The notes below the pieces were generated by a model. The model did not search any database and was not told the DNA's origin. It saw only the letters and a list, made by a program, of their open reading frames with translations. A program made the position numbers and the translations under genes. A stretch of DNA of 55,478 nt. Origin: Actinomycetes bacterium. Lineage in GTDB: Bacteria; Actinomycetota; Actinomycetes; S36-B12. The stretch is from assembly GCA_037137855.1 (NCBI GenBank), contig JBAXJN010000002.1, positions 1 to 55,478 on the forward strand, read 5' to 3'. Positions 11,524-35,461 of this stretch are shown here, piece after piece. Within the stretch, counting starts at the first letter, position 1, and every line of letters begins with the position of its first letter.

Positions 11524-11579
11524 CCTTGGCTTGGCCGTAAGATAGGCCACTCATCCTGCTGCAGAGAGGTCGCCTGACC

Positions 11580-12614
11580 ATGGCTCACGGTTCGTCTTCG
11601 TTCGTCGGCCGAGATATGGCCGTCGACCTAGGTACGGCCAATACTTTGGTGTATGTGCGCGGCCGCGGCATCGTGCTCAATGAGCCATCAGTGGTGGCTA
11701 TCAACAACAACACAGGCGGGATCTTGGCGGTTGGCTCAGAAGCCAAGCGAATGATTGGGCGCACCCCCGGCAACATCGTTGCCATTCGACCGCTCAAAGA
11801 CGGCGTGATTGCAGACTTCGACACCACCGAACGCATGCTGCGCTACTTCATTCAAAAAGTGCACAAGCGCCGCCACCTTGCAAAACCCAGACTCATCATC
11901 TGTGTTCCTTCAGGTATTACGGGTGTTGAGCAGCGTGCGGTCAAGGATGCTGGCTACGCAGCAGGAGCCCGCAAGGTCTTCATTATTGAAGAACCGATGG
12001 CCGCAGCAATTGGCGCCGGACTTCCCGTGCACGAGCCAACGGGCAACATGATTGTCGATATCGGTGGCGGCACTTCTGAAGTCGCCGTGATTTCACTTGG
12101 CGGCATTGTTACCAGCCTGTCTGTTCGAGTTGGTGGCGATGAACTCGATAACGCGATCATCAATTACGTGAAGCGCGAGTACTCGCTGATGCTTGGTGAG
12201 CGCACTGCAGAAGAAATCAAGGTCGCAATTGGTTCGGCATTCCCTTTGCCGGATGAGCCACATGCTGAAATTCGCGGACGCGATCTTGTTACCGGCTTGC
12301 CGCGAACCATCGTGGTGTCAGCAGAAGAAATTCGTCGGGCAATCGATGAGCCGGTTAATGCAATCGTGGCTGCGGTGAAAGCCACCCTTGATCGCACTCC
12401 ACCTGAGCTATCGGGCGACATCATGGATCGAGGCATCGTGCTCACTGGGGGCGGAGCCCTGCTGCGCGGCCTTGATGAGCGTTTGCGTCACGAAACAGGC
12501 ATGCCAATCTTGATCGCCGACCGCCCGCTTGATTGCGTAGTTCTAGGTTCCGGAAAGTGTGTCGAGGAATTCGATGCACTCCAGGCAGTACTCGTTTCCG
12601 AGCCACGGCGTTAG
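11580..12614 (+). CDS. mreB: Rod shape-determining protein MreB
   Basis: 344 aa. Actin-fold motifs are present: [43 protein letters not shown] and [15 protein letters not shown]. Confidence 0.97.
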
Positions 12615-12648
12615 GACGGCCGGTCACTAGACCAGCCGATATTTCACC

Positions 12649-13626
12649 ATGTTTCAGCGCCGCGCACGAGTGGTTATCGCGGTCCTTATTGTTGTGTCAC
12701 TTACGTTTGCAATTCTTGACCTGCGTGGTGGGAAAGGCCCGTTTGCAACCTTCCGTTCAGTTGTCGGAACCGCACTTGGCGGGGTTGAACGGGCAGGTGC
12801 CACGATTTTCTCACCCATCCTGGCCATTGGTGATTGGTGGGGAACATGGGGCGATCAACGCGATCAAATCAATACGTTACAAGCAGAAAATCAAGCGTTA
12901 AGTGACCTTGTTCGCCGTTCAGCACAAGACCGCGCTCGCGCAGATGCACTTGATGGGCTACTACGAGTAGCGGGTGCCGGCAGATACCGCATCACGCCCG
13001 CTGAAGTTATTGCTGTTGGTCCTGAACAGGAATTTAGTTGGACAATCACGATCGACATTGGCACTCAAGATGGCATAGAACGAGATATGTCAGTGATTAA
13101 TGCTGACGGACTTGTTGGGCGAGTGTCTGCAGTACACCGCACAACATCAACGGTAGTGCTGATTGTTGACCCGTCAATGTCGGTTGGTGCCCGGATTGCA
13201 GGAAGTGATGAAGTCGGTATTCTTTCTGGCACCGGAGATCAAAACTCCCTTGAGTTCCAGATGTTGAATCCACTCGCCAATGTTGACATTGGTACAGCGT
13301 TGGTGACCTTCGGTTCAAAAAATGGCAAGCCCTATGCACCAGGAATTCCAATTGGTGAAGTGACCGAGGTACGAGGCACTGCCGGTCAACTTACTCGGGT
13401 AGCTGCTATCAAGCCGTTTGCGCGGATGTCAGCGCTGTCCATCGTTGGAGTTGTCGTTCGTCCTCCTCGGACAGACCCAAGGGATTCGGTGTTACCTGCT
13501 CGACCACAGGAAGTCACCCCTTCTTTGAGTGCGACACCCATACCTTCGACCACAGGAAACCCGAGTGCAGCTACGCGTGGGAGTTGGTCTGATCCCTCGC
13601 CACAGCCTTCGCCGAAGGCTTCCTAA
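12649..13626 (+). CDS. mreC: Rod shape-determining protein MreC
   Basis: 325 aa. It has an N-terminal TM helix, a coiled segment (LQAENQALSDL) and beta-barrel region motifs (GLVGRVSAV, ALVTFGS..GKPYAPGIPIGEV). The C-terminal tail is Pro/Ser-rich. It sits directly between mreB and mreD. Confidence 0.85.
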   Translation: MFQRRARVVIAVLIVVSLTFAILDLRGGKGPFATFRSVVGTALGGVERAGATIFSPILAIGDWWGTWGDQRDQINTLQAENQALSDLVRRSAQDRARADALDGLLRVAGAGRYRITPAEVIAVGPEQEFSWTITIDIGTQDGIERDMSVINADGLVGRVSAVHRTTSTVVLIVDPSMSVGARIAGSDEVGILSGTGDQNSLEFQMLNPLANVDIGTALVTFGSKNGKPYAPGIPIGEVTEVRGTAGQLTRVAAIKPFARMSALSIVGVVVRPPRTDPRDSVLPARPQEVTPSLSATPIPSTTGNPSAATRGSWSDPSPQPSPKAS

Positions 13627-14135
13627 TGTGGTTACGCCAAGTCTTTATCCTTGTGGTGATATTCCTGATCTCGTTCTTAACGCAGAACTCCTTCCTAGGC
13701 CGGCTCGGATTACCAGGTTCGACGCCTGACCTCATCTTGGTTTCGGTGATTGCCGTTGCGCTGGCGTACGGCTCGGCGATGGGGATGATCTACGGCTTTG
13801 CTGCTGGAATTTTGGTTGATCTGGCTCCGTCCACTGAAGGGGTAATCGGAGTGAACGCGCTGCTCTTCATGGCTGCCGCTTTCTTCGTCGGTCGAGCCCT
13901 TGATCCACGTGATCGCACCGTTCCCTTACTTATTGGTCTGACTTCAGGCACGGTCGGAGCAGTGATTTTGGCTCGAGGGGTCATCGATTCGGTCCTTGGA
14001 CAACCAACGGTGGTGTGGGCAAATATGGCCGGACTCATCTTGAGCGGCGCGATCTATGCGGCTTTTCTGGCGCCCCTCGTAGTGGTCCCGGTGGGCTGGG
14101 TGGTGCAAAAATTCACCCCCGAGGTTGCAGTGTGA
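13626..14135 (+). CDS. mreD: Rod shape-determining protein MreD
   Basis: 169 aa and polytopic. Its ATG overlaps the mreC stop (TAATG). The call rests on position and hydrophobicity. Confidence 0.75.
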   Translation: MWLRQVFILVVIFLISFLTQNSFLGRLGLPGSTPDLILVSVIAVALAYGSAMGMIYGFAAGILVDLAPSTEGVIGVNALLFMAAAFFVGRALDPRDRTVPLLIGLTSGTVGAVILARGVIDSVLGQPTVVWANMAGLILSGAIYAAFLAPLVVVPVGWVVQKFTPEVAV

Positions 14136-14222
14136 AGGCTGGTAAGTGCGTTAATGGAACTATCCGAGCATTTGATCAGTCACAGTCGCAGGTTCTGTAC
14201 TGCCAGTTGAGGGGAGCGCAGC

Positions 14223-16346
14223 GTGCGTGATCGCTCCATGCTGCGCCTCATGGTGTTCGGGGTACTGGTCTTGTCTCTGGTTGTCACACTTTTCGCCCGC
14301 TTGATGTTTCTACAAATTATTAGCGGCGACTTTTATCTCAACGCCTCCGCGAACAACTCCGTTCGAGAAATCGTGCGTCCAGCAGTGCGAGGCTTAATTC
14401 TGGATCAAGCGGGGCGCCCAATCGTCTCCAACCGCACGACTTTGGAAGTAACTGTTGACCGTGTGACGCTAGGTCGGGCTAAGGATAAAGGCGCCGCGGT
14501 CATTAATCGCTTGGCGTTGTTGCTCAATGTTCCAACATCACAGATCACTGATCGCCTCCTCACCTGTGGCACCGAAGGTGCGAAACCACCTCCTGTGTGT
14601 TGGAACGGGTCGACTTACCAGCCAGTCCCAATTGCTAATGGCATCGATACTCAGACAGCGATCAACATCATGGAACGTCGAACTGACTTCCCTGGCGTGA
14701 GCGCTCAACTGCAGGCTAATCGCATCTACCCGGCTCCTTTTGGAGTGAACGCCGCGCATATTTTGGGTTACCTCGGGCCGGTGACTGAATCACAACTACA
14801 GTCACAAGTTGATGCCAATGCGGCAGATCGGCTTCGTCGTACTGATGTTGTGGGCCGTTCTGGTTTGGAAGCGCAATACGATACCGCGCTGCGCGGTCAA
14901 CCTGAGGTCACCTCTCTTTCCATTGATACGTCAGGGCGCGTCACCAACAAGATTGGTACCAACGCCGCGACCCCCGGCAATTATCTGGTCAGCACGATTG
15001 ATGCTCATTTGCAGGCGGTCGTAGAAAATCAGCTCGTGAATGCCGTGCAACGTGCGCGCTCACAGGGTTACCCAGGTAAGTCAGGGGCAGCCGTGGTCAT
15101 TGACGTCAAAACAGGCAACGTTCTGGCGATGGCGAGTTACCCCACGTATGACCCAGCCATCTGGGTTGGCGGCGTGACGACAAAGCAGTATGAGCAGCTG
15201 AAAAATTCAGAAGCCTTATCCTCGAATGCGATTCAGGGCACCTTCGCACCGGGTTCGACATACAAAGTTATTAGCACTGCTGCTGCTGCGAAAGAAAAAT
15301 TCAATCTTTACGGGCAGTACAAATGCCCCAATGAGTACAAGGCCGGAAATCAAACCTTCCGAAATTATGAATCCCGCGGATACGGAGCAATTTCCCTCGC
15401 TCGGGCTCTAGAAGTTTCGTGTAACACCGTCTTTTATGGCATCGCTGACACGATGTGGAAGCAAGGTGGCGGTCTGAGTGCTGAGCGCACCGCACCAGAT
15501 CCGATTGCCAATATGGCGAAGTCGTTTGGTCTTGGTACTAAGACAGGGGTTGACTTACCTGGTGAATCAGGTGGACGTGTTGCGAGTCGACTGTTCAAGG
15601 CAGAGAACTGGGATAGCAAGAAAGACAGTTGGTGCGCGAATGCGCTTGACGGTTATTCAGAAACACGTAAGACCAACCCAACATTGGCAAACTTCTATAC
15701 CGCGTTGGATAAAGAGAATTGTGCAGACGGATTCCGATGGCGCGAGGGAGATGCTTTGAATGCCGCTATTGGACAAGGTGACACGGTTGTTACTCCGTTG
15801 CAGATGGCAATGGTCTATTCAGCAATTGCAAATGGTGGAACCGTGTATCAACCTCGAGTGGTCAAGGGTGTTATCGGCCCTGAGGGCAAGGTTCTGGAAA
15901 ACTTTGCGCCTGTGGTCAAGTCAAAGATCGCGGCTCCGAAATCGGCAATAGATTTTCTGCAGGCTGCGTTACCAGGAGTGACCGTGAGAGGGTCCGGTAA
16001 GACTCCGTTTGCTGGCTTCCCGTTGGCGCAGATCCCGGTTGCATCAAAGACTGGGTCAGCACAGGTCACCGGCAACAAGGTGTCCACATCTTGGTTCGCG
16101 TCCTACGCGCCTGCAAACAACCCCAAGTACGCGATTGTCATGATGGTGGCTGAAGGTGGCACCGGTTCGGGAACTTCAGGTCCCAGTGTGCGCAAAATCT
16201 ATGAGGCACTATTCGGTGTGAGCGGAAAATCCGTGAACTCGGCGAAGAGCATTCTCGTCGGTGGAATGCCAAAACTTGATTTGCCGAAAGTGCGGCCAGA
16301 CGGCACTCCAGTTGCACCAAAGGGTAAGAATTCAGGGGTGAACTGA
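14223..16346 (+). CDS. mrdA: Penicillin-binding protein 2 (elongasome class B transpeptidase)
   Basis: 707 aa with a GTG start preceded by GGGGAG. It has a TM anchor and the PBP motifs SxxK (GSTYKV), SxN (SCN) and KTG (SKTGSAQ). Confidence 0.9.
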   Translation: MRDRSMLRLMVFGVLVLSLVVTLFARLMFLQIISGDFYLNASANNSVREIVRPAVRGLILDQAGRPIVSNRTTLEVTVDRVTLGRAKDKGAAVINRLALLLNVPTSQITDRLLTCGTEGAKPPPVCWNGSTYQPVPIANGIDTQTAINIMERRTDFPGVSAQLQANRIYPAPFGVNAAHILGYLGPVTESQLQSQVDANAADRLRRTDVVGRSGLEAQYDTALRGQPEVTSLSIDTSGRVTNKIGTNAATPGNYLVSTIDAHLQAVVENQLVNAVQRARSQGYPGKSGAAVVIDVKTGNVLAMASYPTYDPAIWVGGVTTKQYEQLKNSEALSSNAIQGTFAPGSTYKVISTAAAAKEKFNLYGQYKCPNEYKAGNQTFRNYESRGYGAISLARALEVSCNTVFYGIADTMWKQGGGLSAERTAPDPIANMAKSFGLGTKTGVDLPGESGGRVASRLFKAENWDSKKDSWCANALDGYSETRKTNPTLANFYTALDKENCADGFRWREGDALNAAIGQGDTVVTPLQMAMVYSAIANGGTVYQPRVVKGVIGPEGKVLENFAPVVKSKIAAPKSAIDFLQAALPGVTVRGSGKTPFAGFPLAQIPVASKTGSAQVTGNKVSTSWFASYAPANNPKYAIVMMVAEGGTGSGTSGPSVRKIYEALFGVSGKSVNSAKSILVGGMPKLDLPKVRPDGTPVAPKGKNSGVN

Positions 16347-17527
16347 TGAGTATGTTTTCGGTGACGAGTTCAAGTGATCAGCGCTTCTCGCCCACAAGCA
16401 ACAGTGGGGTGTCCTTGCGCGACCTTGATTGGGTCCTGCTCGCGGCCGCATTAGCCGCAACAATTCTTGGCGCAATGTTGGTGTGGTCGGCAAGCCTTGC
16501 TGACCTTGCCTCGCCAACTGATCCACAGTCCTATCTCAAGAAACATGTCATAAACATTGTTTTAGGTTTAGCGCTTGGTTACGTTGCTTCGCGGTTGGAC
16601 TACCGATGGTTACGTGCATACACGCCAGTGATCTATGCAATTTCGACGGTCTCATTGCTTTTGGTCTTTGTTCCAGGGCTTGGAACAAAGATCGCGGGCG
16701 CACGCGCTTGGATTCAACTGCCTGGTGGCTTCACCATCCAACCTTCGGAATTTGTGAAGATTGCCGTCATCTTGATGATGGCTGTGATTCTGTCTGAAAA
16801 AGATCGGGCAGATCAGGAACCTGCGGACAAAGATGTGATGTTCGCTCTTGGGGTTGCAGTTGTGCCTTTGCTCATTATTTTGGTGCAAAACGACACGGGC
16901 AGCGTGTTGATCCTTGGATCAGTAGCCCTTGCAGTAATCGCGGTAAGTGGGGCTCGCACGAAATGGCTGATTGGGCTGCTGCTGAGTTCCATTTTTGGCG
17001 TGCTCATAGCAATTCAACTTGGGCTGTTGAAGCAATATCAGGTCGATCGGCTTACCTCGTTCATTAATCCAACCGCTGACGCAAGCAGCATTGCGTATAA
17101 CTCAACACAGGCCAGGATCGCTATTGGTGGCGGTGGGTGGTTTGGTTTTGGGCTCTTCAACGGTCCACAAACCCAGGGGCGCTTCGTTCCAGTCAATGAA
17201 AGTGACTTCATTTTCACGGTGGCCGGCGAAGAGCTGGGCTTCATCGGTGCCGGAATTCTGATCCTGCTCTTAGGCATCGTCCTATGGCGAGCGATTGTCA
17301 TTGCCATGAAGGCTGACGACATGTACGGCCGACTAGTGGCAACGGGAATTGTGGCTTGGCTGGCCTTTCAGATGTTTGAAAACATTGGCATGACCCTTGG
17401 GATTATGCCAATCACGGGTGTTCCGTTGCCCTTTGTGTCAGCCGGAGGCACGTCGATGATGGCCGTCTGGATAGCCGTCGGATTGCTTCAGAACGTCCGA
17501 TTGCATAGCCAGCAGCAACTGCCCTAG
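16346..17527 (+). CDS. rodA: Rod shape-determining protein RodA (SEDS glycosyltransferase)
   Basis: 393 aa and polytopic. SEDS motifs are present: QPSEFVKI, DTGS, ESDFIFTVAGEELGF and PITGVPLPFVSAGGTS. Its ATG overlaps the PBP2 stop (TGATG). Confidence 0.9.
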   Translation: MSMFSVTSSSDQRFSPTSNSGVSLRDLDWVLLAAALAATILGAMLVWSASLADLASPTDPQSYLKKHVINIVLGLALGYVASRLDYRWLRAYTPVIYAISTVSLLLVFVPGLGTKIAGARAWIQLPGGFTIQPSEFVKIAVILMMAVILSEKDRADQEPADKDVMFALGVAVVPLLIILVQNDTGSVLILGSVALAVIAVSGARTKWLIGLLLSSIFGVLIAIQLGLLKQYQVDRLTSFINPTADASSIAYNSTQARIAIGGGGWFGFGLFNGPQTQGRFVPVNESDFIFTVAGEELGFIGAGILILLLGIVLWRAIVIAMKADDMYGRLVATGIVAWLAFQMFENIGMTLGIMPITGVPLPFVSAGGTSMMAVWIAVGLLQNVRLHSQQQLP

Positions 17528-17551
17528 TTAAAAGCAACGTACACTCTGCAG

Positions 17552-19513
17552 GTGACCGTTATAGATGCTCGAGTAAAAGGCGCCTCCATCTTCAACGAGG
17601 TTGAGGCTCTGCTGCCCATGGTTTCAAAGCCGATTCAATATGTCGGTGGCGAGCTCAACGCGGTGGTTAAGCCGTGGGAATCCGTCGACGTGCGCTGGGT
17701 GATCATGTACCCGGATGCGTACGAAGTCGGTGCGCCAAATCAAGGTGTCCAGATCCTTTACGAAATCATCAATGAACTTCCGAACGCACTCGCTGAGCGC
17801 ACCTACTCAATCTGGCCTGACCTTGAGAAGCTGATGCGCGAAGCAGGAGTTCCGCAGTTCACTGTTGATGCGCATCGATCCGTTGGCGACTTCGATCTCT
17901 TTGGGCTTTCATTTTCAACTGAGCTTGGTTACACCAACATGTTGACGGCAATTGATCTGGCTGGAATTCCCATCTTTGCCAAAGATCGCACGATCGATCA
18001 CCCAGTGGTTGTCGCAGGTGGGCATGCCGCATTCAATCCGGAACCAATTGCTGAATTCATCGATGCAGCTGTGATCGGCGATGGCGAAGAAGCGGTCCTA
18101 AAGATCACCGAACTCGTGCAGCAATGGAAAAATGATGGGCAGCCAGGCGGCCGCGATGGGCTGTTGTTGTCGATTGCCACTTCTGGCGTTGCTTACGTTC
18201 CTAAGTTCTACGACGTTTCTTATCTGCCAGACGGTCGCATTCAGCGGGTGGTACCAACGAGCCCAGATGTGCCATGGCGAGTTTCCAAGCACACGCTGAT
18301 GGATCTCGATGCTTGGCCTTACCCAAAGGCTCCACTGGTTCCGCTCGCCGAAACCGTGCATGAGCGATTAAGTGTTGAAATTTTCCGAGGATGCACACGC
18401 GGTTGTCGTTTTTGCCAAGCTGGCATGATCACGCGCCCGGTCCGCGAGCGCAGCATCACCACGGTTGCCGACATGATCGACACTGGATTATGTAAAACGG
18501 GCTTCCAAGAGATCGGCTTGCTTTCGCTCTCGAGTGCCGATCACTCAGAGATCGCAGAAATGGCGAAGGCTCTTGCTGACCGTTATGAAGGTGATCAGAC
18601 CTCACTTTCACTTCCGAGCACCCGCGTTGACGCCTTCAACATTGATTTGGCAAATGAACTATCACGTAACGGTCGACGCAGTGGTTTAACTTTTGCCCCT
18701 GAAGGTGGCAGTGAGCGGATGCGCACAGTCATCAACAAGCAGGTAACTGAAGAAGATCTCATTCGTACCGTTTCGACGGCATACGGTGCAGGCTGGCGAC
18801 AGGTGAAGTTGTATTTCATGTGTGGATTGCCGACAGAAACCGATGATGATGTGTTGCAGATTGCAGCACTTGCGCGCGAAGTCATCCGAGCTGGCCGTGA
18901 AGCAGCGGGCACAAAGGACATTCGCTGCACAATCTCAATTGGTGGCTTTATCCCCAAGCCACACACTCCGTTTCAGTGGGCGGCTCAGTTGGATCACGAA
19001 ACTACAGATGCCCGTCTGCACAAACTCAAAGACGCGATTCGCGCTGACAAGCAATTCGGCAAAGCAATCGGAATGCGCTATCACGATGGCAGACCTGGAA
19101 TCATTGAAGGATTGCTGTCCCGAGGTGATCGCCGGGTCGGAAAAGTCATTCATCAGGCTTGGCTTGATGGTGCGCGCTTTGACGGTTGGAGCGAGCACTT
19201 CTCTTATGACCTTTGGATGAATGCCGCAGAAGTCGCACTCGCTGATGAAATCGTCGACGTTGATTGGTACACCACGCGCGAACGTCAAAAGACTGAAGTA
19301 TTCCCTTGGGATCACATTGATTCAGGTCTTGATTCCGAATGGCTCTGGGAAGACTGGCAGGCAGCAATTGCTGAAGAAAATGTTGGCGATTGCCGTTGGA
19401 CACCTTGCTCGGATTGTGGAGTCTGTGACCAGTTGGGCACCGACATTCAAGTCGGGCCTACAGGTGTTACCGAACTTCCGATGCCAATGATGCGGCCAAG
19501 TGTGGTGAACTAG
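17552..19513 (+). CDS. Radical SAM protein, TIGR03960-like (B12-binding-like N-domain plus radical SAM core); function unknown
   Basis: 653 aa. The 4Fe-4S/SAM motif CTRGCRFCQAG (CxxxCxxC) lies near nt 18392-18420. The N-terminus VSKPIQYVGGELN and the overall size match the uncharacterised TIGR03960 family as I remember it. Confidence 0.8.
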   Translation: MTVIDARVKGASIFNEVEALLPMVSKPIQYVGGELNAVVKPWESVDVRWVIMYPDAYEVGAPNQGVQILYEIINELPNALAERTYSIWPDLEKLMREAGVPQFTVDAHRSVGDFDLFGLSFSTELGYTNMLTAIDLAGIPIFAKDRTIDHPVVVAGGHAAFNPEPIAEFIDAAVIGDGEEAVLKITELVQQWKNDGQPGGRDGLLLSIATSGVAYVPKFYDVSYLPDGRIQRVVPTSPDVPWRVSKHTLMDLDAWPYPKAPLVPLAETVHERLSVEIFRGCTRGCRFCQAGMITRPVRERSITTVADMIDTGLCKTGFQEIGLLSLSSADHSEIAEMAKALADRYEGDQTSLSLPSTRVDAFNIDLANELSRNGRRSGLTFAPEGGSERMRTVINKQVTEEDLIRTVSTAYGAGWRQVKLYFMCGLPTETDDDVLQIAALAREVIRAGREAAGTKDIRCTISIGGFIPKPHTPFQWAAQLDHETTDARLHKLKDAIRADKQFGKAIGMRYHDGRPGIIEGLLSRGDRRVGKVIHQAWLDGARFDGWSEHFSYDLWMNAAEVALADEIVDVDWYTTRERQKTEVFPWDHIDSGLDSEWLWEDWQAAIAEENVGDCRWTPCSDCGVCDQLGTDIQVGPTGVTELPMPMMRPSVVN

Positions 19514-20260
19514 TTGGCTCGTCCTGCCCCGGTGCGTGATTTCGCACCAACCATTCAAAAAATACGTTTGAAGTATGCCAAACGCGGGCGTCTGCGTTTT
19601 TCATCTCACCGTGACTTTCAGCGGGCTTTTGAACGCGCGCTCCGCCGGGCCAATGTGCCGATCGCTTTCAGTACCGGCTTTTCGCCGCATCCCAAGGTTT
19701 CTTACAACAACGCTGCGCCAACGGGCACAGCCAGCGAAGCCGAATACATTGAAATTGGTGTGACGGTGGAGTGCGATCCTGATCGCATTCGTCTAGCGCT
19801 GGATGAAGCGTTACCGCCAGGCTTAGACATTATTGATGCAGTCATCTCCAACTCGCCCGACTTCGCTGGCCGTTTAGAAGCAAGTGTGTGGCATTTGGAG
19901 TTCCTAGGAGTCACGCATGGTCAGCTCGACTCAGCGGTGAGTGCCTTCCTTGTAGAGACGGAAGTCCTCGTGGAGCGCCTCATGAAGACCGGTATTCGGA
20001 CCTTTGATGCTCGGTCAGCAGTGCTGTTCGCAGAGGTACATCCACCAGAGTCGATACCGCTGGATCCAGAGTGTGCGATACTCACCTTGGTTGTTCGGCA
20101 TAGCGTTCCCGCTGTTCGACCTGACGATGTTCTTGCCGCGCTGCGGCGAGTGGCTGACCTCGTGCCGCCCACCCCTGTGAGGGTGACCCGGCTGGCGCAG
20201 GGACCACTTGCCCCCGATGGCCAAGGCGTAGGGGATCCCTTCGCTCTTGACCGCGGTTAG
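19514..20260 (+). CDS. Radical SAM-associated protein, TIGR03936/DUF2344-like; function unknown
   Basis: 248 aa. Its TTG start is the codon immediately after the radical SAM stop (TAG|TTG). The opening KIRLKYAKRGRLRFSSHRDFQRAFERALRRANVPIAFSTGFSPHPKVSY resembles the family that is found fused to, or adjacent to, TIGR03960 proteins. Confidence 0.7.
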   Translation: MARPAPVRDFAPTIQKIRLKYAKRGRLRFSSHRDFQRAFERALRRANVPIAFSTGFSPHPKVSYNNAAPTGTASEAEYIEIGVTVECDPDRIRLALDEALPPGLDIIDAVISNSPDFAGRLEASVWHLEFLGVTHGQLDSAVSAFLVETEVLVERLMKTGIRTFDARSAVLFAEVHPPESIPLDPECAILTLVVRHSVPAVRPDDVLAALRRVADLVPPTPVRVTRLAQGPLAPDGQGVGDPFALDRG

Positions 20261-20350
20261 CGAGAGCCAAGAACCCCATGGCTTTGTGTGTTTTCCTCGG
20301 GAGACACACCTGATTGGCAGAAGTTTTGCCACCGAAGGAGGGTCGACCAC

Positions 20351-22855
20351 ATGGTCGACAACGAAAACCCAAGCTCAACCACATCCAATCCAGAAACTCC
20401 TGCTCCTCGCACCCGTCGCCGGGCTGCGAGCCGACCCGCTGGTCCACCAGTTGAGGTTGACGAGATCAAGGGCGCCCCTGCGAAAGCGGCCGAAAAGTCA
20501 TCAGTCAAGACTCAGGACCCTGCTGACAAGGCACCTGCTAAGCCAAAGACTGCGCGTCCACCGCGCAAGACCAAGGTTTCTGCTGATCACGCTCACGTCG
20601 AGCAAGAGGTAGTTGCCAAGGATTCTGCACCCAAGGATGCTGCGCCCAAGGAGACAACTGCGAAGCAAGGCGCTCCTAAGAACTCACGCGCACCAATTGC
20701 TGCAGCTTTTGTGGCGCCAGTCTTCATGGCTCCGACCCCGGCTGCAGAACAGATGTCCGAATCAGCTGACGGCAAAGAGACACAAAAGGCCAAACGGCCC
20801 ACGACTCAGCGTCGAGGCAAGGCTGCAGCTGACCAAGAAGTTGGACTTGAAACAGAAACCACCGATACAGATGCGCCGCAAGCCGACGCAGAGGGTGCGG
20901 GCGAGGTTGACGATGACAGCGAAGAAGGCCAGCGCCGTCGGCGTCGTCGTCGCGGTGGCCGCGGACGCCGCAAGCGCACCGGTGAAGGCGAAGACCTGAC
21001 AGAAGATTCTGAGAACGACAATGGTGAAGAAGATTCGTCAGATGTTTCTGAAGACGCTGATGCTGATGTCGATGCCGTTGAGGGCGAAACTGAAGAGCAG
21101 GCTGCATCACGTCGTCGCCGTCGTCGCCGCCGCCGTGGCAATGACGACCTCGAACCATCGGCTGATGATCCACCAAACACTGTGGTCAAAGTTCGCGAGC
21201 CGCGTGCCAAGGGTGAAGACGTTACAACCATGCGTGGCTCGACTCGTTTGGAAGCCAAAAAGCAGCGTCGCCGCGAAGGCCGCGAAGCCGGCCGTCGCCG
21301 TCCACCAATCTTGACTGAATCGGAATTCCTCGCTCGTCGTGAAGCCGTAAATCGAGTGATGGTGGTTCGTCAAAACGGTGATCGCACTCAGATCGCCGTG
21401 TTGGAAGACGGAGTGCTTGTAGAGCATTACGTGACACTTGGATCTTCAGGTTCGCTTGTCGGCAACGTCTATTTGGGCCGTGTGCAAAACGTGCTGCCGA
21501 GCATGGAAGCAGCCTTCGTTGACATTGGTCGCGGCCGCAATGCAGTGCTGTACGCCGGTGAAGTGAACTGGGACGCGGCTGGCTTAGAAGGACAGCCAAA
21601 GCGCATCGAACTTGCCATGAAGTCAGGCGATCCAGTGTTGGTGCAAATCACCAAGGATCCAGTTGGCCAAAAGGGTGCACGGTTGACGAGCCAGATTTCT
21701 TTGCCTGGACGTTTCTTGGTGTACGTGCCAGATGGTTCCATGACAGGTATCAGTCGCAAGCTGCCAGACACTGAGCGATCGCGGCTTAAGTCCATCTTGA
21801 AGCGGGTAATGCCAGAGGAGGCAGGCGTCATTGTTCGTACTGCCGCTGAAGGCGCTCCTGAAGCTGCACTTGAGCAGGATGTAGAGCGACTCAAGGCGCA
21901 ATGGGAAGGCATCAGCACTCGCGCGGTAAATGCAACACCACCAACGTTGTTGTATGGCGAACCTGATCTTGCGATCAAGGTCGTTCGCGACATCTTCAAT
22001 GAAGATGTAAACAAAATGGTTGTCTCTGGCAGTGAGGCCTGGCAGACGGTTCAGGAGTACGTCACTTCTGTTGCGCCTGATCTAGCCGTTCGCCTTGAGC
22101 ATCACGTGGGGAACAGCGATGTTTTTGCGGAATACCGCATCGATGAACAACTCGCTAAAGCTTTGGATCGCAAGGTCTGGTTGCCTTCAGGCGGCTCGCT
22201 TGTGATCGATCGAACTGAAGCGATGACCGTTGTTGACGTCAACACGGGCAAGTTCACTGGTCAAGGTGGAAACCTTGAGCAGACCGTCACAAGCAACAAC
22301 CTTGAAGCTGCTGAAGAGATTGTTCGCCAGCTTCGGTTGCGCGATATCGGTGGAATCATCGTCGTCGACTTCATTGATATGGTTCTTGAAAGCAACCGAG
22401 ATCTTGTGTTGCGTCGCTTGGTTGAATGTCTTGGTCGCGATCGCACGAAGCATCAGGTTGCCGAAGTCACCAGTCTTGGTTTAGTGCAGATGACACGAAA
22501 GCGTATTGGCTCAGGATTGATCGAATCATTTTCAACGAACTGTGAAGCTTGCAATGGTCGCGGCGTCAAGGTGAACATGCATGAGCACGATCATGTGGAA
22601 TCACCGAAGAGTCGTCGGCCAGCAAATGCGGTTGATCCCGCAGATGTTGCTGCTCGTGTATCAGCGTCAATCGGTGATCTTGACACAGTAGATATTGAAG
22701 CCATCGATGCGATTGAAACCTTTGAAGGCATCGAAGACATGGATGCAATCGAAGCCATCCGACTTGAAGCACATCTTGAAGCAGCGCAAGACCGAGCTGA
22801 GTATGAAGTAGTTGCTCATGCGGTTGCTGTTGATAGCGACTCCGCGGACGCTTAA
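20351..22855 (+). CDS. rne: Ribonuclease E (Rne/Rng family) with long disordered N- and C-terminal extensions
   Basis: The S1 and catalytic core carry VGNVYLGRVQNVLPSMEAAFVDIGRGRNAVLY, GGSLVIDRTEAMTVVDVNTG and GGIIVVDFIDM, plus a Zn-link CEACNGRG. The start is re-called to ATG 20351 (GAAGGAGG lies 6 nt upstream) instead of track position 20288. Confidence 0.9.
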   Translation: MVDNENPSSTTSNPETPAPRTRRRAASRPAGPPVEVDEIKGAPAKAAEKSSVKTQDPADKAPAKPKTARPPRKTKVSADHAHVEQEVVAKDSAPKDAAPKETTAKQGAPKNSRAPIAAAFVAPVFMAPTPAAEQMSESADGKETQKAKRPTTQRRGKAAADQEVGLETETTDTDAPQADAEGAGEVDDDSEEGQRRRRRRRGGRGRRKRTGEGEDLTEDSENDNGEEDSSDVSEDADADVDAVEGETEEQAASRRRRRRRRRGNDDLEPSADDPPNTVVKVREPRAKGEDVTTMRGSTRLEAKKQRRREGREAGRRRPPILTESEFLARREAVNRVMVVRQNGDRTQIAVLEDGVLVEHYVTLGSSGSLVGNVYLGRVQNVLPSMEAAFVDIGRGRNAVLYAGEVNWDAAGLEGQPKRIELAMKSGDPVLVQITKDPVGQKGARLTSQISLPGRFLVYVPDGSMTGISRKLPDTERSRLKSILKRVMPEEAGVIVRTAAEGAPEAALEQDVERLKAQWEGISTRAVNATPPTLLYGEPDLAIKVVRDIFNEDVNKMVVSGSEAWQTVQEYVTSVAPDLAVRLEHHVGNSDVFAEYRIDEQLAKALDRKVWLPSGGSLVIDRTEAMTVVDVNTGKFTGQGGNLEQTVTSNNLEAAEEIVRQLRLRDIGGIIVVDFIDMVLESNRDLVLRRLVECLGRDRTKHQVAEVTSLGLVQMTRKRIGSGLIESFSTNCEACNGRGVKVNMHEHDHVESPKSRRPANAVDPADVAARVSASIGDLDTVDIEAIDAIETFEGIEDMDAIEAIRLEAHLEAAQDRAEYEVVAHAVAVDSDSADA

Positions 22856-22863
22856 CGAATTTG

Positions 22864-22918
22864 AAAGAGCGCGAACTGCCTATTGACGGTGTCAATGGTG
22901 TTCGCGCTCTTTTGCTTT
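22864..22918 (+). terminator. Rho-independent terminator after rne
   Basis: A 13-bp perfect stem pairs aaagagcgcgaac (22864-22876) with gttcgcgctcttt (22900-22912). An inner ttgac/gtcaa sub-stem is present, and ttgcttt follows. Confidence 0.7.
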
Positions 22919-23233
22919 ATCGATGGCATTAAATGTGGCGCTGCTACTCAAGGCTTGTAGGCAGGGCTTGTTTGTGTAGCTTGATTCACAAAGATAATTG
23001 AGTGATGGGTTCTGTTCTCTTTGTAGACAGAACATCAAAATATGTTCGCACGAAGTACCACTTGGGTGTTATGACTCCTGAATTTATAACGATTTGATAA
23101 CGAAGAACTTACTTACCTCCCTGGCTGTTGGATCGGGTGAAGTGTCAATCTCTAAATGTGACGGCAGTCACTTAATTTTTCTGACAATGGTGCGCATGAC
23201 GCGCATCGATGAATCTGAAACGGGGAGTAATTC

Positions 23234-24505
23234 ATGGCAGCTCAAAATAAGGGGCGACGCTCGGTACTTGTCAGCACCCTCAGCATAGGAATCGTGGTGG
23301 GTGCTTCGGCGAGCCTTTCATGGGGAGCACCCACGCCGGCAGTCTCTGCTAAGCCGGTTGTCTGTCCGGCATCGCCTGGAGTCGATAACACGTCGATAAA
23401 TGTCGGTGTCATCACTGCTACCTCGGGGCCATCCTCGTCAAGCTTTACCGGGTTCGTAGAAGGCGCACGGCTACGTTTTGCTCAAGAAAATGCAAAGGGT
23501 GGCGTTTACGGACGAAAGCTCAATGTCACGGTGTACGACGATCAGGGAAGCGGCGCTCAACAATCATCGGTTGCCACCAAAGCCATTCAGCAGGACAACC
23601 AATTCGGAGTCGTCGAAGCGAGCACTATTGACACCATGATGCCTGTCTTCAAGGCTTCCAATGTTCCGGTGGTTGGGTTGACTAACCTGCCCGCACATGG
23701 CACCGACCGAAATGTATTCGGTGCAACTGGTGCCTTTGCACCTCTCTACACAACAACGACTACGGCTCACAAACTTGCGACATCAGGGTCAGTTGCTGTC
23801 GCTGTGGTGAATCACAACTCTCCAGGTGCTCAGGCAGCAGGAGCAGGAATTGTTGCGGCGCTACCTCTTGAGAATCTTCCGTTGGCTCTGAGAATCTCGG
23901 ATGCACCGATCGGTGCCTATGACGCAACTTCGACCGCGCTTCGTATCAAGCAATCTGGTGCAGATTCAGTCGATGCAATTTTGACTTTGGATGGCTCAGT
24001 GTCGCTCATCACCGCATTGGCTCAGCAGGGTGTGAAGTTGAAGGCATTCATGCCAGCAGGACTATCCGATCCGCTCGTTGTCGCTAAGGCTCCGGCTGCT
24101 CTTGAAGGCGCCATTGGGGCAACCTTTGGAACTGTTCCCGCTGGTGTTGCCGGCAGGCCTGGGCTGCGTACCTTTGTGAACGGTATGAAGGTCGCAGGGG
24201 CGAACCCTTATGCAGTTGGTTCACCGATCGGCTTCGTATCGGCAGATACCTTCATTAAGGGTCTGCAACTTGCTGGTAAGTGCCCAACCCGTGAAGGCTT
24301 TGTCAGTAACTTGCGCAAGCAGACGAAAATTACTGGAGCTGGAATGCTCCCTGAACCAATCAGTTATGCACCAGGACTGACACCGAACGGCAATCCTGCT
24401 CGTTGCGGCTGGTATATGACGGTCAAGAATGGCGTTTTCGTTCCGGATGCACAGGCTACTTGCGGCAAATTGGTGGAAGTCGCCACGGGCAAAATTGTTG
24501 GCTAA
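23234..24505 (+). CDS. ABC transporter substrate-binding protein, branched-chain amino acid (LivK/Peripla_BP_6-like) family
   Basis: 423 aa with GGGGAG upstream of the ATG. The signal peptide contains RRS (GRRSVLVSTLSIGIVVGASASLSWG). The body has INVGVITATSGP.. and GGVYGRKLNVTVYDDQG, typical of type I LIV-binding proteins. No permease or ATPase gene is adjacent. Confidence 0.78.
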   Translation: MAAQNKGRRSVLVSTLSIGIVVGASASLSWGAPTPAVSAKPVVCPASPGVDNTSINVGVITATSGPSSSSFTGFVEGARLRFAQENAKGGVYGRKLNVTVYDDQGSGAQQSSVATKAIQQDNQFGVVEASTIDTMMPVFKASNVPVVGLTNLPAHGTDRNVFGATGAFAPLYTTTTTAHKLATSGSVAVAVVNHNSPGAQAAGAGIVAALPLENLPLALRISDAPIGAYDATSTALRIKQSGADSVDAILTLDGSVSLITALAQQGVKLKAFMPAGLSDPLVVAKAPAALEGAIGATFGTVPAGVAGRPGLRTFVNGMKVAGANPYAVGSPIGFVSADTFIKGLQLAGKCPTREGFVSNLRKQTKITGAGMLPEPISYAPGLTPNGNPARCGWYMTVKNGVFVPDAQATCGKLVEVATGKIVG

Positions 24506-24518
24506 CACTTCAATAACT

Positions 24519-24556
24519 AGTGGGGTGGTCAGTGCTTTTGCATTGACCACCCCACT
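24519..24556. terminator. Bidirectional hairpin terminator between convergent genes
   Basis: A 13-bp perfect stem, agtggggtggtca / tgaccaccccact, encloses a 12-nt loop. tgtttg follows on the plus strand. Confidence 0.6.
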
Positions 24557-24581
24557 TGTTTGAGGCTGAAAACATTGCTGG

Positions 24582-25055
24582 TTATTCAGCGACGACGCCC
24601 ATCGCCAGGAGGTAGCGACCGGCCATGGCATAAAAGCCAACAAGTAGAGCCATATCTGAGATTTCCTGCGGTGACCAATGCTTAGTCGTCGCAAGCCAGA
24701 GTTCATCTGTGGTCGTCACGCTGTCGGCAGCCTCGCAAAAGTTGAGCGCGGCTGTTTCAGACGCGCTGAAAGCCTTGAAGTCTGTAGATTTAAGCGCCTG
24801 TAGTTCCTGGGCAGTTACTCCGGCCTTAAGGGCCACTGGCTCATGTAATTGGGATTGATAAGTAGAACCGACTCGGTACAAGGTACGCAAGACAAGAATC
24901 TCTCGTGTGCGATCTGAAAGGCGCGAAGTGGAATGCACTCGTCCGGAAAGACTCGCAAACCCTTTAAACATCTCCGGATTGTTGTACACAGCACGCACAA
25001 TTCGGTTGTCAGTCATCATTTCGGCAGGGAGTTCAGCTTCAGGCAGTCGCTGCAT
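24582..25055 (-). CDS. Carboxymuconolactone decarboxylase (AhpD-like) family protein
   Basis: 157 aa. The helical core RTREILVLRTLYRVGSTYQSQLHEPVALKAGVTAQELQAL is typical of the CMD family. There is no CxxC motif, so it is not an AhpD-type peroxidase component. Confidence 0.7.
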   Translation of the reverse strand: MQRLPEAELPAEMMTDNRIVRAVYNNPEMFKGFASLSGRVHSTSRLSDRTREILVLRTLYRVGSTYQSQLHEPVALKAGVTAQELQALKSTDFKAFSASETAALNFCEAADSVTTTDELWLATTKHWSPQEISDMALLVGFYAMAGRYLLAMGVVAE

Positions 25056-25082
25056 GAGAGTCCTTAGTGTTGTGAAGTGATG

Positions 25083-26024
25083 TTAAGCGAGTGCTGCGAT
25101 GAGTGGACCTAGTTCCCAAGCAAGTGGCTCACTCACAGTGAAATAGGTGATTCCATTTTGATTGTTGATAGCTTGAACATGCTCGACAAGTTCGGCGGTA
25201 TTACCAATCAGCCCAAAGGGCGACTCGAGTAACTCATCAGTAGTGAGCCCACCCGCTACAGGCATTCCGGTGGGCCCAAGCGCACGTGCAGCAGTTTCGG
25301 CGCGACTCTCACCTTCTGTGCCTACGGCTCCGAACAGCACCCGAACACCAATAGTGAGATCATCGCGCTCGTAGCCACCGGCATCGCGAATCCAAGATAG
25401 TTGGTCATTGAAAGCCGACTTTCGAGTATCAGCAGTGCCAGACATCTGCGTCAAAATACTGATGATTTGCGCATTCTTCGCGGCGTAGCTCAACATTCGT
25501 TTGCCACCGCCACCAAGCATGATTGGAAATGGATTCTGAACTGGTTTTGGAACTGAGGTGAAGTCGTGGATGGAGTAGTACTCACCGTCAAAATTCACAG
25601 GTTCACCAGTAAAGAGTTGACGAAGGACTGTGATGCTTTCAAACAATCTGCTGACACGCGTTCCAGGTGGATCCCAAGTGGCTATGCCGGTTTTGGTGAG
25701 ATCTTCTTCAAGCCAACCTGCGCCTATCCCCATATCAACTCGACCTTTCGACATGATGTCAAGGGTTGCTATCTCTTTTGCCAAGATAGTTGGATTGCGA
25801 AAGTCGTTATTCAACACAGTTATTGCTAGGCGAATGCGCTCCGTAACCATCGCGGCTGACGCCAGTGCGACGATGGGTGCCAGTTGCGGCAGGCTCGGCC
25901 CCAGGTGGTCAGGAACAGAAATCGAATAGAAGCCCAGGGCTTCAGCGCGTTGTGCTTTTGCAACCCAACTATCCACATCAGGGGTGAATGGCATTTGAAT
26001 TGAAAATTTGAATTGTGGGCTCAA
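25083..26024 (-). CDS. Luciferase-like monooxygenase (LLM) family oxidoreductase, possibly F420-dependent
   Basis: 313 aa. It has a TIM-barrel LLM pattern (AEALGFYSISVPDHL, GRVDMGIGAGW, IMLGGGGKRML). The TTG start at 26024 is preceded by GGAGGGG and overlaps the upstream SDR stop (TTGA). Confidence 0.75.
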   Translation of the reverse strand: MSPQFKFSIQMPFTPDVDSWVAKAQRAEALGFYSISVPDHLGPSLPQLAPIVALASAAMVTERIRLAITVLNNDFRNPTILAKEIATLDIMSKGRVDMGIGAGWLEEDLTKTGIATWDPPGTRVSRLFESITVLRQLFTGEPVNFDGEYYSIHDFTSVPKPVQNPFPIMLGGGGKRMLSYAAKNAQIISILTQMSGTADTRKSAFNDQLSWIRDAGGYERDDLTIGVRVLFGAVGTEGESRAETAARALGPTGMPVAGGLTTDELLESPFGLIGNTAELVEHVQAINNQNGITYFTVSEPLAWELGPLIAALA

Positions 26025-26764: not shown

Positions 26765-26920
26765 AGGTGAAGTATTCGAGATACCGCTCGGGTGAGAAGC
26801 GAAATTGGAGAAAATTTAGAATAACTTGAAGAAGTTCTGTCGATAGAGATGACACACAGAGGGATTTTGTTCACCGAACCAACAAAAGTCTCCGCGGCGC
26901 ACTGTTTATCCGAGATGAAT

Positions 26921-27556: not shown

Positions 27557-27866
27557 CTGCGCTACTCCCTCCAAGATGCAATCTCAGTATTTGTCCGCCT
27601 GACGCATCAAAGCACAGAAATCCCAGTGATGTGTTGGCTTTCATGACTCCACCGTGACTGCTGATGCAGTGATTGCACTTCGGGGCGATTTCCTATTTTC
27701 TCAGCGACTTTTGTTCTAAATGTGAGCATTTGACGCAGCCTTCTGTGGCCAGCGTCGCGCTGTCGTGTCCAAAATCTTTATTTATTACGACAAACCTCGC
27801 AGAACCCATCACATTACGAGCCTGCTTGTGAGAGATTCACGAGAAATCAATTCCAGGGAGTGTGTG

Positions 27867-33273: not shown

Positions 33274-33395
33274 ATATACAGCAGGGGCCGGTTTGACCCT
33301 TAGGGGGCATTTTCCGTACTCTTGGGGCCCGGACAGTTTTCGTCCGAGTGTGTTCCACGTTTGGAACTCGCGAAATTACGAGGTAGGAGTACGTG

Positions 33396-33710
33396 GTGTA
33401 CGCGATTGTGCGCGCTGGCGGCCGTCAGGAAAAGGTCGCAGTTGGCGACGTTGTAGTGCTGGACCGGATTCCCGGTGCACCAGGCACTTCCTTAGTCATG
33501 CCTTGCTTACTTATGGTTGATGGCACTTCGGTGACCACCGACTCTGCCGCTCTTGCAAATGTGAAGGTTTCGGCCGAGATCATTGAGCACAAGCGCGGAC
33601 CAAAAATCGACATCTTGAAGTACAAGAACAAGACCGGCTACCGCCGCCGCCAGGGCCACCGTCAGGAGCTCACCGCGGTCAAGGTCACCGACATTTCGAC
33701 CGGGAAGTAG
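33396..33710 (+). CDS. rplU: 50S ribosomal protein L21
   Basis: The product begins [20 protein letters not shown] and contains [16 protein letters not shown]. Two tandem GTGs lie at 33393 and 33396. The second gives the canonical MYAIV N-terminus and better spacing from AGGTAGGAG. Confidence 0.95.
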
Positions 33711-33719
33711 TGAACTGAA

Positions 33720-33971
33720 ATGGCATCCAAAAAGGGCGTATCCAGTACCCGTAACGGCCGCGACTCCAACTCTCAGCGCCTTGGCGTGAAGCGTTTCGGT
33801 GGTCAGGAAGTTAACTCGGGAGAAATCATCGTGCGTCAGCGCGGCACCCACTTTCACCCGGGCAACAATGTTGGCCGCGGCAAGGACGACACTTTGTTTG
33901 CTCTTGCAGCAGGCCGAGTCGAGTTCGGTACACATCGCGGACGCCGCGTTGTGAACATCCTCGCTGGGTAG
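33720..33971 (+). CDS. rpmA: 50S ribosomal protein L27
   Basis: 83 aa. The sequence [29 protein letters not shown]...[28 protein letters not shown] is unmistakably L27. Confidence 0.97.
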
Positions 33972-33997
33972 TTCCGCACTCATAGCAGCACATCTTC

Positions 33998-34048
33998 AAA
34001 CGAGGCGAGCTACAGCTCGCCTCGTTTGTCTTTGGTCCTACAGGACCA
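33998..34048 (+). terminator. Terminator/attenuator hairpin pair between rpmA and obg
   Basis: A 12-bp stem aaacgaggcgag / ctcgcctcgttt is followed by gtcttt. A second 6-bp hairpin tggtcc-taca-ggacca lies at 34033-34048. Confidence 0.65.
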
Positions 34049-34066
34049 CATACGTAAGGATCAGTT

Positions 34067-35461
34067 ATGACCACCTTCGTCGATCGCGTGCAGCTATACG
34101 CGCAGGCGGGCGATGGTGGCATTGGCTGCGCATCGATTCTGCGTGAGAAGTTCAAGCCCCTTGGCGGCCCTGACGGCGGCAATGGCGGTAAGGGTGGCGA
34201 TGTTATTTTGGAAGTTGAACCGCAAATCACCACCCTGCTTGAGTTCCACCACCGACCACACCAAAAGGCCACGAGTGGCCGCCCAGGTGCCGGAAATAAC
34301 CGCCATGGCGCTCAAGGTCACAACACGATTCTTCGGGTGCCATCCGGCACCGTTGTCACCACGCCAAGTGGCCAGATCCTGGCCGACCTTGTCGGTGCTG
34401 GCATGTCTTTTGTACTTGCTCAAGGCGGCCGTGGTGGCCTCGGCAATGCTGCATTGGCCAGCCCGCGTCGTAAGGCTCCAGGCTTTGCTCTCAACGGTGA
34501 GCCGGGCGAATACCGTGAAGTGGTTCTTGAACTTAAAACTGTTGCTGACGTAGCGTTGGTCGGATTCCCAAGTGCTGGTAAATCCAGCATGATCGCAGCC
34601 TTGAGTGCGGCCCGACCAAAGATCGCTGACTACCCATTCACCACCTTGGTGCCAAACCTTGGAGTCGTCACAGCTGGTGACACTGTTTTTACCGTTGCTG
34701 ACGTACCTGGTTTGATCCCAGGAGCTAGCCAGGGCAAGGGCCTTGGTCTTGAATTCCTGCGTCACGTTGAACGTTGCAGTGTGCTTGTTCATGTTCTTGA
34801 TGGTGCAACTCTTGAACCAGGTCGCGACCCACTTGATGATCTTGACGCCATCGAAAAAGAACTGGAACTGTATGGCGGTTTGGCTGATCGCCCTCGCTTA
34901 GTTGCTATCAATAAAATCGATATTCCTGACGGTCGCACCATGGCTGAACTTGTGCGTCCAGCGTTAATCGGTCGCGGATATCACGTTTATGAAGTGTCAG
35001 CAGCAACCCATGAAGGGCTGCGCGAGTTGACCTATGGCATGGCTGCGCTTGTGGCCAAGGCGCGCGCTGCAGTGATTCACGAGATTGCTCCGCGCATTGT
35101 TATTAGCCCACGGGCAGTCAACGAAGAAAGTTTCGTTGTTACGCGAGAAGAAGCCGGTTTCCGAGTTCTAGGTGAACGTCCAGAGCGTTGGGTGCGCCAA
35201 ACCAACTTCAGCAACGACGAAGCTGTCGGCTATCTCGGTGACCGATTGGCTCGCTTAGGTGTTGAAGCTGAACTCATTGCTCAGGGTGCAATGCCAGGGG
35301 TCGCAGTCATGATCGGTAAAGAAGAAAACGCCGTGGTCTTCGATTGGCACCCATCAATTCAGGCAAATACCCGCTCAGAGGCTTCGCCACGTGGCACAGA
35401 TGTGCGTGTGCATCTCGGTGAAATCCAGCGCAATGAGGACAATAGCGTTTATGACGACTGA
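34067..35461 (+). CDS. obg: GTPase Obg/CgtA
   Basis: 464 aa. It has the Obg fold [44 protein letters not shown]1 [10 protein letters not shown]3 DVPGLI and G4 NKID, plus a C-terminal TGS-like extension. Confidence 0.95.

Follow-up and report, generated by a model that had tools for sequence, protein, structure and literature searches.

What is the function of a two-gene radical S-adenosylmethionine (SAM) system that stands between the elongasome genes and the RNase E gene of an actinobacterium? The question is raised by a 55,478-nt stretch of contig JBAXJN010000002.1, referred to here as the window (G+C content 53%), in which a gene for a 653-aa radical SAM protein (17552..19513, forward strand) abuts a gene for a 248-aa protein (19514..20260, forward strand) that is followed in turn by rne. 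The original prediction placed the two proteins in the TIGR03960 and TIGR03936/DUF2344 families, and both open reading frames (ORFs), together with the CTRGCRFCQAG stretch it reported in the first, exist as it described them. It further suggested a conserved role in the modification of RNA, of a ribosomal or degradosome component, or of a component of the cell envelope. Of these options, the RNA one is favored by the TruA-like fold of the DUF2344 protein, and the envelope one is disfavored by loci in which the system persists away from any elongasome gene. Our reading, which we hold tentatively and place somewhat short of probable, is that the pair would be a radical SAM enzyme that modifies RNA and is coupled to RNase E/G. 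A functional study of TIGR03960 or TIGR03936 was not found in the literature searched, in agreement with the earlier statement that neither protein has an assigned substrate.

Family membership and fused forms

Both proteins score above the curated cutoffs of the families to which they had been assigned. The 653-aa protein matches TIGR03960 with 683.5 bits (cutoff 462.3), residues 20–628 covering positions 3–601 of the 605 in the model, and the 248-aa protein matches TIGR03936 with 170.9 bits (cutoff 71.9). Pfam reports a single domain for the latter, PF10105/DUF2344 (158.6 bits, threshold 23.8), and two for the former: PF19864 Radical_SAM_N2 at residues 65–217 (171 bits) and PF04055 Radical_SAM at residues 275–440 (74 bits). 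In the larger protein, a Radical_SAM_N2/B12-like N-terminal domain precedes the radical SAM core, which is followed by a helical C-terminal region. It is 73–80% identical to orthologues as far away as Streptomyces (the Streptomyces orthologues themselves being at 73–75%) and 38–46% identical to fusion proteins of other phyla, and public freshwater metagenome data already contain proteins that are 94–100% identical to it.

The start of the radical SAM gene is most likely the GTG at 17552, because residues F14, E18, L21 and P22, all of which precede the alternative start at Met23, are invariant among homologues. One gene call begins at Met23 instead, giving a 631-aa product.

An exhaustive HMMER search over 1.84 billion cluster representatives (50% identity) recovers 3272 representatives of the radical SAM family at E ≤ 1e-30. 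Among the best 150 of these 3272, a DUF2344 domain follows at the C-terminus in 121; another 21 are full-length stand-alone proteins and 8 are fragments. The metagenome loci described below include 46 with a fused gene and 27 with adjacent separate genes. The fused protein is the common form and the split pair of the window a minority form, so that the fusion originally said to occur in some lineages is in fact dominant. Those fusions that bear a taxonomic name belong to Armatimonadota, to Selenomonas (Bacillota), to a deep class within the actinobacteria and to a metagenome-assembled genome (MAG) of Micrococcales. The frequency of fusion (121/150) argues that the radical SAM and DUF2344 parts act as one unit. 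The window pair shares with the fused majority form its domain content and the adjacency of the two parts, and differs from it merely by the split at an in-frame TAG and by a displaced rplU gene.

At the junction in the window (19511..19516, forward strand), the stop codon of the first gene is followed by the start codon of the second with a gap of 0 nt and in the same frame (...AAC TAG-TTG GCT), as had been noted before. At this point, close relatives read TAG-GTG, and in those further away the two genes meet at ATGA or TGATG or are separated by up to 12 nt. We read the junction as an ordinary translational coupling pattern. Programmed read-through of the in-frame TAG was also considered and rejected: relatives show ordinary stop–start overlaps in other frames, and several assemblies made independently encode identical products of 653 aa.

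A TruA-type fold that lacks the catalytic aspartate

The fold of the DUF2344 protein points to the kind of substrate that the system may act on. An AlphaFold2 model built from 80 homologues has a mean pLDDT of 88.4 and a pTM of 0.82. When this model is compared with the Protein Data Bank (PDB) using Foldseek, the 19 best matches are all TruA, Pus1 or PUS3, with a probability of 1.00, E-values down to 1e-7 and TM-scores of 0.50–0.58 over the entire domain. The matches comprise bacterial and archaeal TruA, human and yeast Pus1 and human PUS3, and several of these structures were solved with tRNA. The same resemblance is seen in a model of the concatenated pair. No structural match to a peptide-binding domain was found for this protein. 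The resemblance agrees with the placement of DUF2344 in the pseudouridine synthase clan by Pfam (PMC7955657).

Residue conservation was examined in an alignment of 118 diverse fusions and the window pair. The DUF2344 positions conserved at a level of at least 85% are R18, H32, R45, G55, P58, G71, E77, P101, G103 and Y/W126; no aspartate in the domain reaches this level, and the family consensus GFxPxP...PPLPVGxES is also devoid of Asp. All pseudouridine synthases require an invariant catalytic aspartate. With that residue missing, the radical SAM/DUF2344 pair is not a pseudouridine synthase. An hhalign comparison with TruA sequences drawn from PDB alignments gives a weak residue map (probability 8.5%), in which TruA D60 lies opposite Pro69' and the aromatic residue at position 126 (Y/W) lies opposite the active-site Tyr118 of TruA; given the low confidence of this alignment, Y/W126' may be the equivalent of Tyr118.

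DUF2344 shares with TruA, Pus1 and PUS3 a whole-domain fold and a Pfam clan, but it differs from them in three respects: (i) it lacks their catalytic Asp, (ii) it is undetectable as TruA by sequence, a DUF2344 profile searched against PDB sequences returning neither TruA nor any other meaningful match and (iii) unlike them, it invariably comes with a radical SAM protein. Across the family, the first 70 residues have a median pI of 10.6. Based on the model, DUF2344 looks like a TruA-derived pseudo-enzyme that has kept the TruA-type fold and lost the catalytic Asp, and RNA binding would be the most economical role for it. We also note that no truA gene was found in the loci collected. The one experimental trace of the family that was found is a protein named 'Radical SAM-linked protein', detected in the insoluble part of the Faecalibacterium duncaniae proteome (PMC13020158), which, going by its name alone, may be a member of TIGR03936.

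The radical SAM protein and its possible chemistry

The radical SAM [4Fe-4S] motif, CX3CX2C, is present as CTRGCRFC at residues 281–288 (18392..18415, forward strand), and its three cysteines (C281, C285 and C288) are conserved at a level of at least 85% among 118 diverse fused representatives. A second cysteine motif, CX4CX2CX2C (C614, C619, C622 and C625; 19391..19426, forward strand), is found near the C-terminus. Three of its residues, C614, C619 and C622, are conserved at a level of at least 85% family-wide and C625 is present in most members. This motif may be an auxiliary Fe-S or metal site. The AlphaFold2 confidence is low in this region, as expected of a cluster loop modeled free of its ligand. 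The N-terminal domain, by comparison, has no conserved cysteine in the alignment of fusions and window pair.

To place the catalytic part among known structures, we used a model of the concatenated radical SAM and DUF2344 proteins, for which natural fusions bridge the alignment (pLDDT 79.4, pTM 0.69). The best structural matches of the radical SAM part are MgmA (9ccb, E 9e-12), TokK (7kdx, 4e-8) and CysS (9n1d, 6e-8), all of them cobalamin-dependent (class B) radical SAM C-methyltransferases, followed by the tRNA methylthiotransferase MiaB in fourth place and then by the dehydratase AprD4. A PDB sequence search with the same part likewise returns MgmA first (9ccb, E 3.7e-5), followed by weak RimO matches, and no close solved homologue. 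MgmA, TokK and CysS are the nearest folds, and MgmA shares a GG...P / G(D/E)GE stretch in addition to the core. The likeness is in fold only, however, since sequence identity to the TIGR03960 protein is 13–16%. The latter adds a helical C-terminal region with the Cys motif and a TruA-like partner, and MgmA, TokK and CysS act on a protein side chain or on antibiotics, not on RNA. The TIGR03960 protein may use cobalamin, as the family name implies; the PF02310 B12-binding match of the window protein is 21.5 bits, below the threshold of 32.1, and some orthologues carry a precomputed match to PF02310.

This sub-threshold score leaves room for an enzyme that is RNA-directed and independent of cobalamin, in which the Rossmann module would be B12-less, the C-terminal Cys cluster would take part and the outcome would be thiolation, methylthiolation, dehydration or a C-C link. 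The structural distances are compatible with such a view, because MiaB (TM 0.57, normalized by target) and the B12-independent AprD4 (TM 0.51) are almost as near as MgmA (TM 0.60), and CX4CX2CX2C could hold an auxiliary cluster like that of the methylthiotransferases. The three matches with the best E-values are nonetheless all cobalamin-dependent methylases, and the N-terminal domain is without conserved Cys, unlike the UPF0004 domain of MiaB and RimO. The modules of MiaB, RimO and MtaB are analogous to those of the present system (an N-terminal α/β domain, a radical SAM core and an appended RNA-binding module), but their UPF0004 three-Cys motif and TRAM domain are absent from the TIGR03960 protein, which scores 18.1 bits against the MiaB/RimO model TIGR00089 (cutoff 251). 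On these three counts, the pair is not a MiaB/RimO enzyme. We consider the cobalamin-independent alternative unlikely, although it survives better than the others discussed below.

Gene neighborhoods tie the system to RNase E/G

Two questions are important for the interpretation of the locus: (i) which neighbors are retained among Actinomycetota and (ii) which are retained when the surrounding genes change. For the first question, 80 species-level actinobacterial genomes were surveyed, with counts restricted to loci having enough sequence. The conserved order is folC ... mreBCD–pbp2–rodA ... rSAM ... DUF2344 ... rne–rplU–rpmA–obg–proB, where rSAM is the radical SAM gene. Within this string, rne lies no more than 3 kb downstream of DUF2344 in 52/52 loci, rodA is within 3 kb upstream in 63/71 and rplU is within 3 kb of rne in 36/46. 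Searches by tblastn with the rplU, rpmA and obg proteins of the window find matches right behind rne in most relatives. Five loci without mre or rodA genes (L009, L012, L013, L021 and L027) retain rSAM–DUF2344–rne, which disfavors a role in the cell envelope. In Streptomyces-type loci, inserts of 0.9–8.3 kb separate the radical SAM gene from DUF2344, and DUF2344 is still found beside rne. These inserts vary among Streptomyces and its relatives (L017, L021, L023 and L029–L080), where about 1.7 kb also lies between rodA and the radical SAM gene.

The second question was addressed with metagenome loci, since a profile search of genomes (with candidates selected by shared words) gave almost only Actinomycetota. 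A profile of diverse fusions was used to fetch 80 such loci, whose proteins are 37–50% identical to the lead sequence and fall into 39 clusters at 60% identity. Neighboring ORFs were clustered without prior labels, and downstream counts required at least 1.5 kb of downstream sequence. The commonest neighbor family occurs in 43 loci and the next family in 11. Its members are proteins of ∼500 aa encoded at position +1 or +2 on the same strand, and they are Rne/Rng ribonucleases; six that were scored against TIGR00757 gave 455–518 bits, all over the cutoff. Rne/Rng is the next same-strand gene in 37/55 loci (24/35 with a fused gene and 13/20 with a split pair), or in 21/33 when counted by clusters at 60% identity, and the gaps that separate it from the system are mostly between -4 and +50 nt. 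Outside the Actinomycetota, rodA directly precedes the system in 5/48 loci, and rplU or rpmA lies within five genes in 8/45. The predicted enrichment is therefore far beyond chance for Rne/Rng, whereas for rodA and rplU it is restricted to certain lineages.

The genes that surround this constant element fall into distinct sets. One has asnS and htrA upstream and rnpA–yidD–yidC–jag–mnmE downstream; in a second, pilC and the gene for a PilS-like kinase lie upstream. A third set, with Firmicutes-type content, reads mreBCD–pbp2–minCDE–rodA–M23 peptidase–M50 peptidase–rSAM–DUF2344–rng–rplU–prp–rpmA–obg. Some gut-metagenome loci have miaB–mutS behind rng, and in two loci without rng the fusion directly precedes rplU–rpmA–obg. 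In one lineage (L090, L091, L098, L106, L111 and L112), the fused gene and rng stand directly before rnpA–yidD–yidC–jag–mnmE, the conserved RNase P protein/membrane insertase cluster. Other recurrent neighbors are RNA-related: rnpA, mnmE, miaB, rplU, rpmA and obg. Since Rne/Rng is kept while the flanks differ completely between lineages, the system is stably associated with RNase E/G and, to a looser degree, with genes related to RNA and the ribosome, not with the elongasome.

The same linkage could mean that the ribonuclease itself is the target. In this alternative, the pair would be a protein-modifying radical SAM enzyme acting on RNase E/G or on the nearby-encoded L21 or L27, with DUF2344 as a docking scaffold. 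The tightest conserved neighbor is, after all, the protein-coding Rne/Rng gene, often with overlapping stop and start codons; MgmA, the best structural match, methylates a protein side chain; and RimO, a relative of MiaB that modifies S12, appears as a weak match in the PDB sequence search. The partner, however, has the fold of a tRNA pseudouridine synthase and matches no peptide-binding domain, and to our knowledge protein- and peptide-modifying radical SAM enzymes as a rule do not bear a domain of the pseudouridine synthase type. One third of the loci are without an adjacent RNase gene, and some fused genes directly precede rplU or miaB instead. We rate a protein target as slightly less likely than a cobalamin-independent enzyme acting on RNA.

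Gene order could also be inherited synteny with no functional tie, the enzyme acting on an unrelated small molecule or cofactor. The string from mre to rplU–rpmA–obg is old and conserved in both Actinomycetota and Firmicutes, and many class B radical SAM enzymes, TokK and CysS among them, act on small molecules. We regard this explanation as improbable. The adjacency to Rne/Rng persists where the other flanking genes differ entirely and survives the insertions that part the radical SAM gene from DUF2344, and none of the further biosynthetic genes that small-molecule pathways normally bring recurs among the neighbors. A service to cell-wall elongation, for example by modification of a lipid-linked or peptidoglycan precursor, would account for the place of the pair after mreBCD–pbp2–rodA on the same strand, with a 24-nt gap in the window, and for the frequent upstream rodA in Actinomycetota and its presence in Clostridia-like loci, but is very improbable given the loci that keep rSAM–DUF2344–rne without mre or rodA, the scarcity of rodA directly upstream elsewhere and the absence of any membrane or envelope-type domain from the Pfam matches and models of both proteins.

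A proposed model for RNA-directed modification

In the RNA-directed reading, the two genes would encode two halves of one enzyme, which in most lineages is a single fused polypeptide. DUF2344, with its TruA fold and basic N-terminal lobe retained, would serve as the module that recognizes the RNA and presents the nucleotide. The TIGR03960 protein would be the catalytic subunit, bearing the CX3CX2C cluster and a Rossmann-type N-terminal domain like that of cobalamin-dependent methylases, and its C-terminal Cys motif may house a second cluster. Acting jointly, the two subunits would place a radical-dependent modification on a stable, structured RNA, which could be tRNA or an rRNA precursor. The likeliest chemistry would be methylation of an unactivated carbon, by analogy with the nearest structural relatives, and in this detail we place less confidence than in the RNA-directed reading as a whole.

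The archaeosine synthesis system ArcS–RaSEA, in which a radical SAM enzyme is complexed with a separate RNA-recognition partner, is a precedent for RNA modification by two proteins of this kind. It is archaeal and its protein families are unrelated to TIGR03960 and TIGR03936. In the present system, the pair would be co-expressed, and often translationally coupled, with the RNase E/G gene, the product of which would process the same class of RNA. Such tight co-expression points to a precursor or a product of RNase E/G processing as the substrate; pre-tRNA trailers, for example, are cut by RNase E/G enzymes (PMC12217051). Physical contact between the pair and RNase E may also be part of this coupling.

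Taken to its full extent, the model describes a new class of RNA-modifying enzyme. A dead TruA domain would grip a nucleotide in tRNA or in an rRNA precursor and flip it out, after which a radical SAM domain of the cobalamin type would add an as yet uncatalogued carbon modification. The reaction would be tied to processing by RNase E/G and would take place in Actinomycetota, Bacillota and Armatimonadota, and also in many further bacteria without a model organism. We view this extended form as possible and somewhat doubtful, and hold it less firmly than the general proposal of an RNA-directed enzyme.

Several observations weigh against the proposal. Every functional step in it is one that we infer, and the fold of a dead enzyme can be reused for a purpose that does not involve RNA. 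The link between DUF2344 and TruA is weak at the level of sequence, as seen from the hhalign probability and the empty PDB profile search, and the whole DUF2344 protein of the window, with a pI of 6.35, is not basic overall. On the catalytic side, PF02310 is under threshold, and the presence of a dehydratase, AprD4, among the structural neighbors makes methylation only the leading guess. Finally, one third of the metagenome loci have no adjacent Rne/Rng gene, and gene order cannot separate an enzyme that acts on the same RNA as the ribonuclease from one that acts on the ribonuclease.

Organization of the locus in the window

The source of the window is a freshwater actinobacterium with relatives among MAGs of the Nanopelagicales type. 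All genes from mreB through rne are on the forward strand, with intergenic gaps of -1 to about 90 nt. NCBIfam equivalog matches identify mreB (starting at 11580), mreC (12649), mreD (13626), the penicillin-binding protein 2 gene PBP2 (14223) and rodA (16346), which form a block at 11580..17527, and the radical SAM gene follows rodA after 24 nt. The gene order originally given for this part of the window is borne out by these matches. The rne gene (20352..22855, forward strand) encodes an RNase E of the Rne/Rng family that matches TIGR00757 with 497 bits (cutoff 326) and also PF10150. Its ORF is open from a GTG at 20288. The ATG at 20352 is preceded by the Shine–Dalgarno sequence GAAGGAGGG and is most likely the start, which gives a 91-nt gap between DUF2344 and rne. 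This spacer (20261–20351) holds a 10-bp hairpin at about 20286–20309 in addition to the strong Shine–Dalgarno sequence; its folding is not significantly better than that of shuffled sequences (z -1.96).

A terminator-like hairpin with a U-rich tail lies directly 3' of the rne stop codon (22863..22913, forward strand). Its folding energy is -32.6 kcal/mol (z-score -6.7), and 0/200 shuffles fold equally well. It is probably an intrinsic terminator, which a consensus scan missed because of its long loop. No comparable intergenic element is found between mreB and rne, and a consensus promoter scan of 9300–23400 gave no match. Given the terminal hairpin and the lack of a comparable internal element, the layout fits a single transcription unit that would end after rne. 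The sequencing runs found to contain the window locus or a gut-metagenome relative are DNA metagenomes only, with no RNA runs among them. An Rfam scan of the window at the gathering threshold returns three tRNA genes (at 763–1041 and 40929–41001) as the sole matches, and no known leader or riboswitch near the radical SAM pair.

The rplU–rpmA–obg genes were expected next door, and this is the case in the Firmicutes-type loci and, for rplU, in 36/46 loci of Actinomycetota. In the window, they are instead found at 33393..35461 (forward strand; ORFs of 105 and 83 aa that are L21- and L27-like, plus Obg), 10.5 kb from rne. The intervening block (22856–33392) contains metabolic genes. It encodes a solute-binding protein, an F420-dependent LLM oxidoreductase, two SDRs, a TetR regulator, a double CoA-transferase, an amidohydrolase and an enoyl-CoA hydratase. 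The distance from rne to rplU is <0.9 kb in the nearest genome (L001) and 3.4 kb in another (L002), which suggests that the 10.5-kb block is either a lineage-specific insertion or has been deleted in relatives.

Upstream of mreB, ndk (9740–10147) and a gene for a 453-aa protein of the Abhydrolase_9 family (10162–11523) lie between folC and mreB, and several freshwater relatives also have the Abhydrolase_9 gene at this place. In the region 5384–9366, the longest ORFs of valS (reverse strand, to 7954) and folC (forward strand, from 7801) overlap by ∼150 nt at their 5' ends. The true folC start is probably further downstream than that of the longest ORF, because the folC match begins at residue 69.

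Implications for the family

TIGR03960 and TIGR03936 have been catalogued for years as uncharacterized families, and the window copy is an ordinary orthologue; the value of the finding therefore lies in the family, not in the locus. This family is large, has an unusually conserved catalytic subunit and is linked across many phyla to a central enzyme of RNA processing. The hypothesis to be considered for it is now narrower, comprising a structured stable RNA as the substrate, a dead TruA-like specificity module, radical C-methylation as the likely chemistry and RNase E/G as the partner. If this is true, the system would represent a new type of RNA-modifying enzyme, probably with a new modified nucleoside as its product, and a case in which a pseudouridine synthase fold has been recruited as an RNA-guiding pseudo-enzyme. 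If the target should instead be RNase E/G itself, the reaction would be the first case of a degradosome component modified by a radical SAM enzyme.

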